DNA of 64,000 nt from Eledone cirrhosa (taxonomy: Eukaryota): assembly GCA_964016885.1 (NCBI GenBank), contig OZ024753.1, positions 23,498,001-23,562,000 of the forward strand. The letters are read 5' to 3'. Of this stretch, positions 4,774 through 20,323 are shown piece by piece. The notes beneath the pieces were generated by a model that was given only the letters and a program-made list of their open reading frames with translations, ran no database searches and was not told where the DNA came from. The number at the start of each line of letters is the position of its first letter. Within the stretch, counting starts at the first letter, position 1. The translations under genes and the position numbers were made by a program.

Positions 4774-5285
4774 CGAACATTATAATAAATATTCGGTAAA
4801 CCCATACGTACATATATATATGTGTGCATGTATGTATTCATATACATACTACTGTGCGTCTGTTCACATATATGTATGTACGTATACATACTTATATTTA
4901 GGTATCAGCCGTACTAAGTGTGAGAAATGAAATTTCGTTTCATTCTTTTCCATTTATCGTTTTCGGTATGCCCGGCCGACTAACTCACTCGATATGCAAA
5001 GTATATACTTTCAGGCGTTCAATCATCTGACAGAAAGGTATACGATGCTGACGATAGCTAATAAGCTTGAAACTAGTACATCGTTCCTGTGTCAGTGTTG
5101 AACAAAACGGCAACGATAGTTGCTAAACACTGTACGGCATAATTCGAGCTGTTTGTTTACAAACAAACCGAACATTATAATAAATGTTCGGTAAACCCAT
5201 ACGTACGCATATATATATGTGTGCATGTATGTATATATGTACATACTACTGTGCGTCTGTACACATATATGTATGTACGTATATG
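4774..5285 (+). mobile_element. Retrozyme-like HHR repeat family 1, about 1.3 tandem monomers (period 395 bp)
   Basis: CGAACATTATAATAAAT.TTCGGTAAACCCATACGTA recurs at 4774 and 5169; no credible coding frame; contains an HHR. Confidence 0.75.
5042..5084 (+). ncRNA. Minimal type I hammerhead ribozyme (family 1)
   Basis: Helix I ACGATG/CATCGT; CTGACGA 5048-5054; short helix II AGCT-aata-AGCT; GAAA 5069-5072; palindromic helix III ACTAGT; GUA site. Confidence 0.8.
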
Positions 5286-5322
5286 TATATATATATATAT
5301 ATATATATATATATATATATAT

Positions 5323-5600
5323 ACTTGTGTATAATGGTAGCTATGGTGCTTCAATAGGCGGTATGCCAAAATTAGCACTCAATATTTATACAGAGTAGAG
5401 GGTGGATAGTATAAAGAAACGAAAAATCACTGATGCATCTGGACTCACATATATTGCGTGTTACAATTGTTTCGCCGGCAGGTAGCTCGAGACATGATCA
5501 CTGTATGGATCATGTCTCGAGCTACCTGCCGGCGAAACAATTGTAACACGCAATAAACTGAGTCCAGATGCATCACTGATTTTTCGTCTTTTTATACTAT
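5323..5600 (-). mobile_element. Very short fold-back PLE insertion with tail; folds back inside HHR helix II
   Basis: 5407-5499 is the inverse of 5508-5600; tail 5323-5406. Both arms carry only the HHR 3' half, GAAA-CAATTG-TA. Confidence 0.65.
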
Positions 5601-5703
5601 ATATACATAACGAAGGAAATGTGGTAAGGAACCAGATGTACAATAACGCACCAAAGTACTCAATACTTAGGGTAGTAGAGTGGGTAATAGGAACGAGTAG
5701 GAT

Positions 5704-5796
5704 CCCGACGGCTGAGCTCAAGCCGTTTCGACGGTTAATTCTGGAGTATATGAACATTTTTATCCTCGTAAATGAATAACCGAACTTCTCAGGGGG
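5704..5796 (-). ncRNA. Type I hammerhead motif with C3-A8 mismatched core (CTGAGAA), probably impaired
   Basis: Minus strand reads CCCC-CTGAGAA-GTTCGGTTA...TTAACCGTC-GAAA-CGGC-ttgagctca-GCCG-TC-GGG; homologous to 23394-23487. Confidence 0.6.
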
Positions 5797-6884
5797 CAAT
5801 TCCATATATGGTAAAAGTGATTGTCACAAGGATTAGTCAAAAGTTTGTTGTTGAGACACATGATTCTATCATGGTATTTTGTGGAAGGTAGGGAACTTGC
5901 CAGTAGAAGAAAGAGGGAGGAGGAGTGGAGGAAACCCAGTCGTGCGTTGAAAGTGACAACTACAGCAGAACCCTAAGGATAAGAGGTCGAGAGAAGTATA
6001 CTAGAGAGGGGAGGGGGAGGAAGTCGAAACAATAAGTAAATCTATATGGAGTAAATATATAAAAAATATAAAAAATATAAAAAAACACAATTTCTGGTTA
6101 CTATTCCCCTTCCACAATCACCAAATCTCTCACTGGTACTGCTAAACTATAGAAAAGTTTAATAGGTGGGACGGAATACTAAATACGAGATTGTAGTGAA
6201 AGAATTTTATGAGTTAGTAGTAATCGGCCAAATTTATCTTACAATGACAGGTCAACAAGTAGGGAGCCAAAATACTAAAATAAAAAAAACTAATACGAAA
6301 TAATAATTCAGAGTTGCGAAACTAATACGAAATATTTATTCAGAATCCCGAAAATGAATACTAATACGATATATAAGAGTACTGCAAAAATACATAAATT
6401 CTAATACAAACTACATAAATGCTCGTACGATATATATGAAAAACTAATACGAAAAATTTAATACGAAAAATTAATTCAGAATCCCCCCCCCCCCCCAAAA
6501 AAAAATAAATACTGATATACGAAAAACTAAAGCAGAGATACCACTAAGAAATCTAGAAATCACGGAAATGGGGCAGCAATCAGATAAGAAAGCAAGTATC
6601 TGGGGTCTAGCACATCTGCTATAAAAAGCGGAATCGGCCAATTCTATCATAGAATAGTGGGGAGGGGTTGAGGCTACAGAGGACCGAAGGGCTGCCTCGG
6701 GGTGGGCGAGAATGTGAAAAGAACGACGACAAAGAGGAGATCTGGGGTGGAAGGACTATGAAGTGATGGGGGAAGATGGAAATATAGAGGAAACGATAAA
6801 AAATATATAAGAAAATCTTCCGTCTACCTTTGTAAGCAGGGATTACCCATTACAAAGTCGGCAAGTGGGGTGTTACAACCCTTG

Positions 6885-17295: not shown

Positions 17296-18604
17296 AATAT
17301 ATTACGGTAGTTATTTTCATCGTTGTATGATATTATGAATACAAAAACTGACTGCGGTTGACTTTGCCCTTTTCCTTTGCCTTTTATCCCTGCCGAATTG
17401 TTTGATAAAATATCTATAAAACATATCTTCTGGTAATCCTGTCGTTGATTCAACCGAATTGAGTAACCTCTCCACAAAAGAAATGTTTTGCTGTGATGGA
17501 GAAACCTATAAATAACCTGACATAATAAAGCTGAATAAGTATTAAAAAATTTGAATTCCAAATAACCCCTTTCAAAGTAAACTTACGACTGCAACTTTTG
17601 ATAGGTTTCCGAACTGGCTTAGCCTTAATGTTTATATTGACAGCTAGGTACAGCAGGGCACAGCAGGGTACGGTTCAATTTTCTTTATAATTATAAATGT
17701 TTTCATAGAATGTACTTGAGTTCATACAATTAATATTAAAGTATTTTATCGTACCTTTCAGACTTGGTCACTAACATATCATCCCCCTATGGTGGTGATG
17801 CCACACTGAATCATTATATAATCTATATTACTAGCTGAATATAAACCACATCACATTTCATAAAATATCTCAAACAGCTACAACAGAAGAATATAGAAAC
17901 ATAATTGTAAAATTAGTTTTGAGTCAGTAGGATGATTTAATCAATTTAAACGTCTGTATAGAGCTAGTAACCCATGACAGACTAGGGGAAGTAGCGAGTA
18001 CTCCTTACAGTTGGTAAGCAGAAAGAGTCTATGAGACAAGTAATAAACAAAATTAAAAAGGAGAAAAGAAAAGAAAAGAAAAGAAAAAGAAAGGAAACAG
18101 AAAAAATAAAATAAAAATAAAAATTTAAGATATTGAAGGGGCCGATGGGAGGGTGGGGGTAGAGGAGGCACAAGAAAAAGAAAAGGAAAATAGTAAACAA
18201 GGGAAGTTGTAAAACAGATGTTTCTGTTGAATCTTTTCCTAGCTTTAATTTACTCAAACATTTTATATTTGGTGTTTTCCTGGTTATTCTTCCATTTAGT
18301 GGCAACATGTCCTTGCCTAGGTAGAAAGGGAAGTAAAGAGTCCTTTAACACCTGATGGAGTCGTAAAGGTGCCGTTTTGGAGGCATTTAAACATGGTGGA
18401 GCCGTTGCCTCTCTAGGTCTGCAAATGGCCAGTTTCTTTCAGAGAAGGAAGTAAAGTAAGAGAGAACTAAAGAAGAGATATAGAGGAATAATCGAGCCTA
18501 CTAATGGATTGATGTTCCATCTATATCTATTTCTCATTTCCATTCTCTCACTCTCTCTATCCCTCTCTGAAATATCAGACGAAGAGAGATCCGCCAGGTT
18601 TAAA

Positions 18605-18758
18605 GGTGACCCAGTAATAGACTGGTACTTTTTTATCGACCTCAAATGAATGAAAGGCAAAGTTGACGTCGGCGCGATTTGAAGTCAAAGAGCAGAGAGT
18701 CAAAACGAATATCACAAAGCATTGTATGGGACGCTCTAACGATTCTGTCCATTCGTAG
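18605..18758 (-). mobile_element. Degenerate tRNA-derived SINE
   Basis: Homologous to 31185-31360 (CTGGT..TTTT.ATCGAC...ATGAAAGGC.AA.TTGA...ATTTGAA.TCA); B-box-like sequence on the minus strand; resembles octopus SINEs as I recall them. Confidence 0.6.
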
Positions 18759-19270
18759 CTTTGTCAATATGATAATATAGATGTTATATTCTGATAGCTT
18801 GATCGTTGTTGTCGTTGTTTAGCCCAAAATCAGCTCTGATCGAGCATGTATTCCAATCAGCTGCCAGGTACACTGCAAGCAGACAAGATTCTCATTAGCC
18901 AAAATGTTCCTCTTTTTAAAATTTATACTTATATTTTCTAACACGATGTAGTTATAGTTAGCTGTTATTTCTAGCTAAATGAACTGACTCTCCAGCACTC
19001 CTTCATTCGTTTATCTGGTAAGGCTTTGGGAGATGTTGGCCTCAACTTTATGGATCAGTAACTACTTCAATGTGTTACTGAAGCTTTGACATTTTCATAC
19101 TGAAAAGGTCGACTGCAGAAGAAATACGTTTCTAGTAGACTTCATTAATTCACAAGATTTCAGTTTTGTTTTCGTTTTGCACTTTCCTATATCATGATTA
19201 GGTGATTGTTCTTTTATATATATATATATATATATATATATATATATATATATATATATATATATATATA

Positions 19271-19463
19271 TAACAAAGGAATTGTGGTAAGTAACCAGAT
19301 GGACCATAACGCACCAGAGTACTCAATACTTACGGTAGTAGAGTGGGAAATAGGAAAAAGTATGACCCCGACAGCAGAGCTGAAAGCCGTTTCGACGGCT
19401 ATTTCTGGACGGCTATTTCCGTCGAAACGGCTTGAGCTCTGCCGTTGGGGTCATACTTTTCCC
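19271..19463 (-). mobile_element. Minimal PLE insertion (tail + HHR 3' half, folded back), same family as 20341-23580
   Basis: 19271-19410 is the inverse of about 23443-23580; 19419-19463 is its inverted repeat; (TA)n on both sides. Confidence 0.85.
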
Positions 19464-19532
19464 TATATATATATGTATATATATATAAATATGTATATGT
19501 ATATATATATATATATATATATATATATATAT

Positions 19533-20323
19533 ATAAGTATGTATACGTACATACATATATGTATACAGACGTACAGTAGTATGCATATATATATATATAT
19601 ATATATATATATATATATATATATATATATATATATATATATATTATATATATATATATATATATATATATATACATACATGCACACATATATATATGTA
19701 CGTATGGATTCACCGAACATTTATTATAATGCTCGCTGTGTTTGTAAACAAACATCCCGAATTAAGCCGCACAGTGTCTAGCAACTACCGTTGCTCATTC
19801 GTTCAACACTGACAAAGGAGCGCTGTACTTGTTTCAACCTTATTAGCTATCGTCACCAACGTATACCTTCCTGCCAGATGGTTGAACGTCTGAAAGTATA
19901 TACTTTCCTTAAGCATATTAACGGCTGAACAGCCTAGTTTGCATACTATTGTACGTCTGTATACATATATGTATGTACGTATACATACTTATATTTAAGT
20001 AACAGCCGTACTAAGAGTGAGAAATGAAATTTCGTTTCATTTTTTCCGTTTATCGTTTTCGGTACCTCGGCCGATTAACTGACTCGATATGCAACTTAGG
20101 CTGCTCAGCCGTTAATATGAATAAGGAAAGTATATACTTTCAGACATTCAACCATCTGGCAGGAATGTATCCGTTGCTGACGATAAATAATAAGCTTGGA
20201 ACTAGTACAGCGCTCCTTTGTCAGTGTTGAACAAATGAGCAACGATGGTTGCTAGACACTGTACGGCTTAATTCGGGATGTTTGTTTACAAACACACCGA
20301 GCATTATAATAAATGTTCGGTAA
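19533..20323. mobile_element. Retrozyme-like family 1: inverted pair of circularly permuted monomers (19533-19944 minus, 19941-20323 plus)
   Basis: Both arms are homologous to 4774-5285 but start at different points of the unit. The HHRs at 19821-19861 (-, GTGACGA) and 20172-20212 (+, GGAA) carry core mutations. Confidence 0.75.

Follow-up and report, generated by a model that had tools for sequence, protein, structure and literature searches.

A 64,000-nt stretch of the Eledone cirrhosa genome (assembly GCA_964016885.1, contig OZ024753.1, positions 23,498,001 to 23,562,000; hereafter the window) carries five pieces of a hammerhead-bearing repeat, family B, which is the subject of this analysis. 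It also contains a 466-bp repeat, family A, and several insertions of Penelope-like elements (PLEs), one of which encodes part of a reverse transcriptase (RT) in a truncated open reading frame (ORF). The five B pieces, B1 to B5 (Table 1), are present where an earlier note on this DNA had placed them, at 1-150 (-), about 775-840 (+), 4774 to about 5283 (+), 19533-19945 (-) and 19940-20323 (+), and probably derive from three insertion events. B1 has no inverted partner within the window, B2 and B3 are joined head-to-head via a 6-nt microhomology common to both arms (TGCATA, 19940-19945), and B4 and B5 probably represent a single insertion, interrupted later, because they show the same facing, differ at 1 of 53 positions and are separated by a stretch that an 8-nt direct repeat brackets. 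The foreign stretch that separates them is probably a later insertion. B5 is a low-complexity hairpin of about 60 nt without a ribozyme; its listing as a family copy (at 780-845 in the earlier note) is upheld through its match to B4.

The period of B1 is 395 nt. Because B1 lacks a 34-nt block (about 20093-20126) that is present in B2, B3 and family A, the unit of family B amounts to about 428 nt. The period and a unit of about 430 bp had both been proposed before, and the missing block proved real, although its length had been put at about 38 nt. Positions within the unit are given as columns of a 479-column alignment numbered from the ribozyme cut site. All 479 columns are covered by B1 alone and again by B2 and B3 together, that is, by two independent insertions. 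Thus, there is no junction that B copies fail to cross, the fixed uncrossed junction of a linear element was not seen, and the RNA template was apparently either longer than one unit or circular.

The B unit has a GC content of 36%, and its longest ATG-initiated ORF spans 53 amino acids. ARAGORN found no tRNA gene in it, and an origin as a tRNA-derived short interspersed nuclear element (SINE) was rejected on that ground. Neither a profile search nor a covariance model of the A and B ribozymes (seven strong matches, all training copies) revealed further B copies in the window; weak matches at 9400-9600, 27285-27355, 36173-36222 and 23645-23675 are at the microsatellite level. Rfam microRNA and small nucleolar RNA matches over the TA/CA block were dismissed as low-complexity hairpins scoring far under the gathering thresholds. 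A prokaryotic or phage origin was likewise rejected: GTDB genomes yielded 0 matches to the common ribozyme pattern, and B3 was unmatched in phages and plasmids. The internal (TA)n of B2 is expanded (about 19586-19675), and the 3' end of B3 adjoins (TA)n and a younger Penelope-like insertion.

Table 1. Features of the window (LTR, long terminal repeat; LINE, long interspersed nuclear element; positions are those of the 64,000-nt stretch)
Feature	Position	Strand	Description
B1	4774-5283	+	1.3-unit partial tandem; 3' end abuts (TA)n
B1 type I hammerhead	5027-5095	+	Only intact B hammerhead; core CUGACGA 5048-5054; predicted cleavage after 5078
B2	19535-19945	-	Inverted arm of head-to-head insertion; 3' end at common site, column 235
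B2 ribozyme	19806-19877	-	Degenerate; C3G and helix III loop change
B3	19940-20323	+	Direct arm; contains unique loop 19946-20087; 3' end at column 133
B3 ribozyme	20156-20227	+	Degenerate; A13G and damaged helix II
B4	1-152	-	Probable long arm of second head-to-head B insertion; leaves window at column 301
B5	775-840	+	Probable short arm, partner of B4; 3' end at column 237, then (TA)/(CA)n
Foreign stretch between B4 and B5	155-766		612 nt; 8-nt direct repeat on each side (147-154, 767-774)
Family A inverted arm	24211-24650	-	Intact hammerhead; 3' end at column 239, homologous to common B 3' end
Family A tandem	24651-26254	+	3.4 units of 466 bp; three intact type I hammerheads; long arm, ends in (TA)n at column 308
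D1, whole Penelope-like insertion	20340-23580	+	Inverted short arm 20340-21102, long arm to 23580; 78-nt tail
PLE ORF, Hydra clade	21102-22286	+	5'-truncated; C-terminal part of RT, CxCX5C linker, GIY-YIG-type endonuclease, CxxC and CxH motifs
PLE type I hammerhead	23394-23490	+	U3-A8 core variant, long helix II; predicted cleavage after 23482
D2	5610-8753	-	Second, diverged copy of D1's PLE family; both fixed ends as in D1
D3	19272-19464	-	Very short head-to-head copy of PLE 3' end, immediately left of B2
Family C	1885-2095, 26299-26753, 27770-27885		Hammerhead-bearing, (TA)n-flanked; one copy a near-perfect palindrome, tail about 85-90 nt
Family E	2666-3191, 3229-3835		Two head-to-head insertions; hammerhead-like cores at 2946 and 3539; tails 59-60 nt
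Short palindromic insertions	5406-5600, 23986-24150, 27437-27570, 28089-28364		No hammerhead detected
zf-RVT LINE 3' fragment	10318-11133	+	
Gypsy-like LTR retrotransposon	12749-16498	-	RT and integrase in separate frames
DDE_1 transposase remnant	28500-30200	+	
LINE RT remnant	32816-35610	-	
Satellite with 13-bp unit	36759-64000		27 kb; extreme GC skew

Kinship of families A and B and their RNA fold

Families A and B can be aligned collinearly over the whole unit, from one cut site to the next, with 270 of 387 aligned bases identical for B1 and 286 of 417 for a composite of B2 and B3 (69-70%, about 30% differing). None of 1000 dinucleotide shuffles aligned globally as well (z-scores of 13.5 for B1 and 15.9 for the composite). 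The similarity thus exceeds AT-rich chance matching, and the ordered blocks described earlier as common to both families are indeed there. The segment between the ribozyme and the TA/CA block, with both excluded, gives z-scores of 10.6 and 15.0 (0/1000 shuffles); immediately 3' of the ribozyme, local similarity is weak (equalled by 19 and 27 of 1000 shuffles), but the global alignment, run for the composite, was equalled by 0/1000. The reversed A strand scores 49-50 against B, compared with 150-182 for the forward strand, and 6-8 of 1000 shuffles do as well, a residual hairpin signal. These alignments support common ancestry, with family B as a sister family of the 466-bp family.

According to a motif scan, B1 and four copies of family A each hold an intact type I hammerhead. 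The core is kept in one of the three B ribozymes, B1, and mutated in the other two, which the earlier note had overlooked. The B1 ribozyme comprises a helix II with a U.U base, GAAA, a 2-bp palindromic helix III and an extended helix I with a UA bulge. In both A and B1, the layout is that of canonical metazoan hammerheads: a 6-bp helix I after the UA bulge, a 4-bp helix II with a 6-nt loop, and a 2-bp palindromic helix III. The canonical metazoan type I form has been described as having a conserved core, a 6-bp helix I, a 4-bp helix II and a 1-2-bp helix III with a palindromic loop, and a 2-bp palindromic helix III should favour dimers (PMC4209133). Family B departs from this form at the 10.1-11.1 pair, which is U.U in all three B copies rather than the canonical G10.1-C11.1, whereas family A has G-C; the active axolotl ribozyme HHR_Amex2 is likewise reported to have U.U at the base of helix II (PMC7229834). 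An antisense hammerhead was found in neither family, even when one core mismatch was allowed, and a symmetric rolling-circle RNA with an antisense ribozyme was rejected accordingly.

A and B1 agree at all 11 core positions but differ at 15 of the 24 positions of proximal helix I and helix II. Ten of the 12 pairs in these helices are still paired, six of them via a double change, and 701 of 200,000 random placements were as good. Helix I reads ACGATG/CATCGT in B and AATATTG/CAATATT in A, different yet paired, as the earlier note had described it. Covariation was judged by pair counts and simulations, with only four distinct ribozyme sequences available. Across these, 7 of 23 ribozyme pairs show a double-sided change (0/500 shuffles; slid controls 0-3), in a test whose shuffle ignores relatedness and in which all seven double changes reflect the single A-B split. 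The compensatory changes are found in both helix I and helix II.

Paired structure continues beyond the ribozyme. Predicted circular folds have z-scores of -9.8 (A), -6.2 (B1) and -6.4 (composite), with 0/60 shuffles as stable in each case; the predicted B circle is 63% paired, and the antisense folds are stable as well (z-scores of -4.7 and -7.2). When A and B1 were folded separately and then compared on a sequence-only alignment, 52 pairs were common to both, 13 with a double change and 3 with a single change. Outside the ribozyme, A and B1 have 37 common pairs and 6 double changes (0/150 draws as good under a neutral-substitution null with means of 1.9 and 0.2), and A and the composite have 33 and 5 (0 and 1 of 150), although this null scatters substitutions evenly, misaligned sites included, so that the contrast is overstated. 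Covariation extends to a helix formed by strands 185 columns apart. With compensatory changes present in both ribozyme helices, I and II, and at six pairs beyond the ribozyme, the whole predicted RNA fold looks to be under selection, which goes further than the selection on ribozyme structure claimed in the earlier note. A conserved GAAA..TTTC hairpin lies within the family A tail and is a candidate protein-binding site.

Family B is more diverged than family A, as had been suspected, because the B2 and B3 arms differ at 20 of 235 positions (8.5%), versus 2 of 440 for the arms of family A (Fisher P = 4e-8). Differences number 5 in 113 positions between the two B1 repeats and 1-2 in 466 between family A units. 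Between B4 and B3 there are 2 in 103, a lower rate than between B2 and B3 (P = 0.03), and part of the B divergence may therefore be template heterogeneity. B1 has a distinct helix I variant and forms a sub-lineage separate from B2-B5. On the sense strand, the changes private to B2-B5 comprise seven A>G and no T>C (P = 0.016, post hoc), their polarity being doubtful as family A has G at four of the seven sites.

Insertion ends and neighbouring elements

The 5' ends of the B pieces are scattered (columns 98, 136, 181, 184 and 348 of 479), which agrees with the previous description of copies that start and end at different points of the unit. Three of the four visible 3' ends do not: they lie at columns 226 (B1), 235 (B2) and 237 (B5), and the fourth is that of B3. 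This short site is also used by the inverted arm of family A, whereas the long site is seen in family A only, B4 leaving the window seven columns short of it. No A or B end coincides with the ribozyme cut site. All 18 of the 3' ends examined in families A to E, including the four visible B ends, abut an alternating AT run; any target-site duplication longer than 4 bp would be hidden, as the ends sit in (TA)n. In seven of eight testable head-to-head pairs, judged by inspection, the arm with the tail also holds the unique loop, B2/B3 being the exception, and tails measure about 60-90 nt across families (hand-set coordinates). The permuted ends had been taken to fit a circular or multimeric RNA. 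A template longer than the unit, or circular, is indeed indicated by the double coverage of the alignment; random entry into a circle is not, since the 3' ends cluster and the scatter at the 5' side corresponds to truncation. Circularity is allowed and not required because PLE RT is reported to start at fixed internal sites of unprocessed RNA (PMC11167929).

At the junction of the family A arms (24649-24693), a 12-nt unit is repeated 3.7 times, which suggests RT stutter during a template switch.

What the earlier picture of the locus missed is this Penelope-type insertion anatomy and the adjoining PLE. D1 has (TA)n on both sides, and its arms are 0.9% divergent, compared with 8.5% for B2/B3; it is thus the younger insertion. 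In all three insertions of this PLE family, D1 to D3, the short arm ends at one site and the long arm 78 nt beyond it. The PLE ORF has 1204 relatives at E <=0.001, with 38-46% identity among the 120 matches listed, and matched no Pfam family. It carries CNCxxxxxC, CxxC and CxH motifs; when nine of the listed relatives were aligned, four reached the region of the DKT/RWK motif, with DKT in three and RWK in one. The CxC linker, CxxC, CxH and DKT/RWK motifs are described as diagnostic for Hydra-clade PLEs, which insert into (TA)n and are reported from aquatic invertebrates (PMC8557442), and the ORF is assigned to this clade because of them. A hammerhead three-way junction forms in the predicted fold of the PLE 3' region; its U3-A8 core is a variant that has been recorded in PLEs (PMC4209133).

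The PLE hammerhead at 23394-23490, of a form that standard CUGANGA scans miss, has further copies near 20350-20445 (-), 5700-5795 (-) and 8680-8750 (+); older copies have C3 with A8, and one lacks most of helix III. Family C is probably the 3' end of another PLE. The isolated hammerhead-like motifs of family E form no hammerhead in the minimum-energy fold. A degenerate hammerhead-like motif at 9850-9925 (CTGATGA ... GAAC), without a stable fold, is perhaps a further PLE end.

The window has a GC content of 30% overall and many (TA)n tracts. Positions up to 36.7 kb, within the 1-36800 covered by a self-BLAST comparison, consist of nested mobile elements, including several short head-to-head insertions. 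The Gypsy-like element is accompanied by 265-nt direct repeats at 11867-12131 and 17031-17295; as these are 99% identical, its insertion is recent. Degenerate SINE-like fragments, which may resemble octopod SINEs, occur at 31200-31520.

Proposed mobilisation of family B

Family B is probably a non-autonomous non-LTR retrozyme, copied in trans by a PLE protein from fixed internal sites of a multimeric or circular RNA. The retrozyme class is already known; family B adds a member to it, together with a mechanistic footprint from three insertions. As in non-LTR retrozymes, there is a hammerhead within a head-to-tail unit of about 150-450 bp, which is non-coding, has a GC content below 50% and is predicted to form a self-paired circle, and a PLE lies nearby. 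The insertions have the form of those mobilised by PLEs, combining partial tandems with inverted 5'-truncated arms at a (TA)n target: B2/B3 and probably B4/B5 are head-to-head, B1 is a partial tandem, and family A has both. The RT and GIY-YIG ORF of an autonomous PLE is absent, as the B unit holds no ORF. No B locus in the window has two consecutive intact ribozymes, the B loci being monomer-type derivatives; by the definition of Li et al. 2026 (10.64898/2026.07.22.740005), none of the three B insertions is an 'active' retrozyme locus, while the family A array qualifies.

Partial tandems, inverted 5' arms and tails are described for PLE insertions (PMC8557442). In vitro, a PLE protein was found to cut AT-rich DNA and to begin copying the RNA at two internal positions that lie downstream of the ribozyme and enclose the genomic tail; ribozyme cleavage was unnecessary, and unprocessed RNA was the main RT substrate (PMC11167929). 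Mobilisation of retrozymes by PLEs has been proposed from their co-occurrence and from the phylogeny of pseudo-LTRs (pLTRs; PMC7229834; 10.64898/2026.07.22.740005), and circular RNAs have been found for other animal retrozymes (PMC7229834).

In the proposed mechanism, a tandem array would be transcribed into a multimeric RNA folding into the conserved branched structure with its type I hammerhead. The ribozyme may cut the multimer into monomers, which a host ligase might circularise, by analogy with other animal retrozymes. An RT/GIY-YIG protein of a PLE would nick (TA)n DNA, and reverse transcription would start within the unit at either of two fixed sites, which lie about 210-240 and about 300 nt beyond the cut site in the downstream direction. 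It would proceed back through the cut site into the preceding unit, presumably stopping at random. A second, inverted arm would be joined head-to-head via short microhomology, and the B insertions would have decayed afterwards. A two-site start, a random stop and the joining of an inverted arm would together account for the fixed 3' ends and the tail, the scatter on the 5' side, and the partial tandems and inverted arms. The template could be a multimer, a circle or an RNA on which the RT jumps from end to end, and an uncleaved multimer would suffice. Expression, cleavage and circularisation of the B RNA are putative, as is the identity of the donor PLE.

Several observations weigh against this interpretation. 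The A and B units show no significant similarity to the 3' regions of the window's PLE family D and families C and E (18 comparisons, the best equalled by 8 of 300 shuffles and 0/18 significant after allowing for 18 tests), so that the terminal-repeat similarity of a pLTR-derived retrozyme is not seen here. B1 scores 18.4 bits and family A 38.6 bits against Rfam Hammerhead_HH9 (RF02275), both under the gathering score of 52 bits. Only three B insertions are visible in the window, with no B end at the predicted long site. The end of B3 (column 133) is off the two-site pattern; B3 may have been cut short by the younger PLE insertion, but its missing 3' part was not found beyond that insertion (best E 0.5). 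The probability that three of four points fall within 10 nt on a 430-nt circle by chance is 0.007, although the 10-nt window was picked after the data were seen and TA microhomology may aid clustering. Last, the fold comparison outside the ribozyme carries the overstatement mentioned above.

A more far-reaching possibility, which appears rather unlikely, is that A and B are viroid-like parasites of PLEs, with selection on the whole fold and on two initiation sites flanking GAAA..TTTC, and with some of the variation among copies arising at the RNA stage through A-to-I editing or RNA-templated copying. It is suggested by the whole-circle covariation, the common end site and the excess of A>G over T>C, and is opposed by the lack of an antisense hammerhead in either family. 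If it were true, the apparent age of family B would partly reflect RNA heterogeneity.

Copying of family B from fixed sites can also be set against random entry into a ribozyme-made circular RNA, in which RT would prime anywhere and roll, leaving both ends arbitrary. The read-through of every unit position, cut site included, by two independent insertions would fit such a process, as would the very stable circular folds, the circles shown for other animal retrozymes (PMC7229834) and the B3 end away from the common site. However, three of the four visible B 3' ends and the family A inverted arm share one site, the ends of the window's PLEs are invariant, and unprocessed RNA was the main substrate in vitro (PMC11167929), which makes random entry improbable. 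A circle with fixed initiation would be compatible with copying by a PLE protein.

It is slightly less probable still that family B is only a pLTR or terminal fragment of an autonomous PLE whose coding part is missing from the window. Ribozyme-bearing PLE ends in truncated form occur often, the window's families C, D and E resemble them, and the insertion anatomy would be equally compatible. B1, however, has a 395-nt period and no ORF; B1, B3 and B4 continue past the common 3' end directly into unit sequence; family A, its sister, consists purely of 466-bp tandem units; and the ribozyme helices are of canonical size instead of the minimal PLE type.

Spread of a DNA-level satellite by recombination or extrachromosomal DNA circles, with palindrome-correcting template switches maintaining the pairing and the hammerhead as a passenger, is very improbable. 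The palindrome-rich window, the stable antisense folds and the damage to two of three B ribozymes would agree with it, but single-stranded core nucleotides are invariant between the families while stems covary, including long-range pairs 185 columns apart, and the ends are strand-polarised, 3' ends lying at (TA)n and 5' ends at random positions.

Twin priming by LINEs also yields inversions, LINE RT remnants occur in the window, and A and B have no sequence link to the window's PLE. Mobilisation of the retrozyme by a LINE of the L1, RTE or CR1 type is nevertheless the least credible explanation, since both arms of an inverted pair carry one and the same stretch and are distinguished by the tail, poly(A) is absent, and the 3' ends lie inside the unit, all signatures of PLEs (PMC8557442, PMC11167929).

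Family B can be compared with several known systems. With the metazoan non-LTR retrozymes described in PMC7229834 and 10.64898/2026.07.22.740005 it shares a short non-coding unit, one type I hammerhead, a GC content below 50%, tandem copies, a highly self-paired predicted circle, sister families within a genome, an optional hairpin-sized indel and co-occurrence with PLEs, although its unit is at the upper end of their size range and, unlike the retrozymes of Li et al. 2026, A and B have no pLTR match among the window's PLE-like ends. No description of head-to-head (TA)n arms, fixed 3' ends or tails for retrozymes was found in searches covering open-licence papers and preprints. Hydra-clade PLEs, as reported in PMC8557442, resemble family B in (TA)n targeting, partial tandems, an inverted 5'-truncated arm, a tail at one end and a type I hammerhead upstream of the 3' ends. 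In contrast, B has no ORF and no detectable similarity to the window's Hydra-clade element, and tails of the families in the window are about 60-90 nt, compared with the 30-40 bp given for the clade (PMC8557442). In the Poseidon element PAc of Anolis, too, the tail is delimited by two start sites that are internal and lie downstream of the ribozyme, the target is AT-rich and the ends are away from the ribozyme cut site (PMC11167929); PAc is, however, autonomous, belongs to another clade and has its start sites in the ORF. Non-autonomous Chlamys elements such as MRC1 are comparable as PLE-dependent units with pLTR-like and multicopy head-to-tail insertions but, unlike B, are algal, generally resemble an autonomous family at the 3' end and belong to a clade reported as mostly without canonical hammerheads (PMC8557442).

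The return of animal retrozymes to the genome has so far been argued from co-occurrence and pLTR phylogeny. At this locus the insertion scars themselves show the Penelope signature of fixed internal 3' ends, a tail, head-to-head arms and (TA)n, and families A and B, although about 30% of their aligned bases differ, have an end site in common. Should the pattern extend across the genome, it would provide a direct and testable link between a retrozyme and the two-site initiation of PLEs, and would mark which RNA structure the PLE protein recognises.

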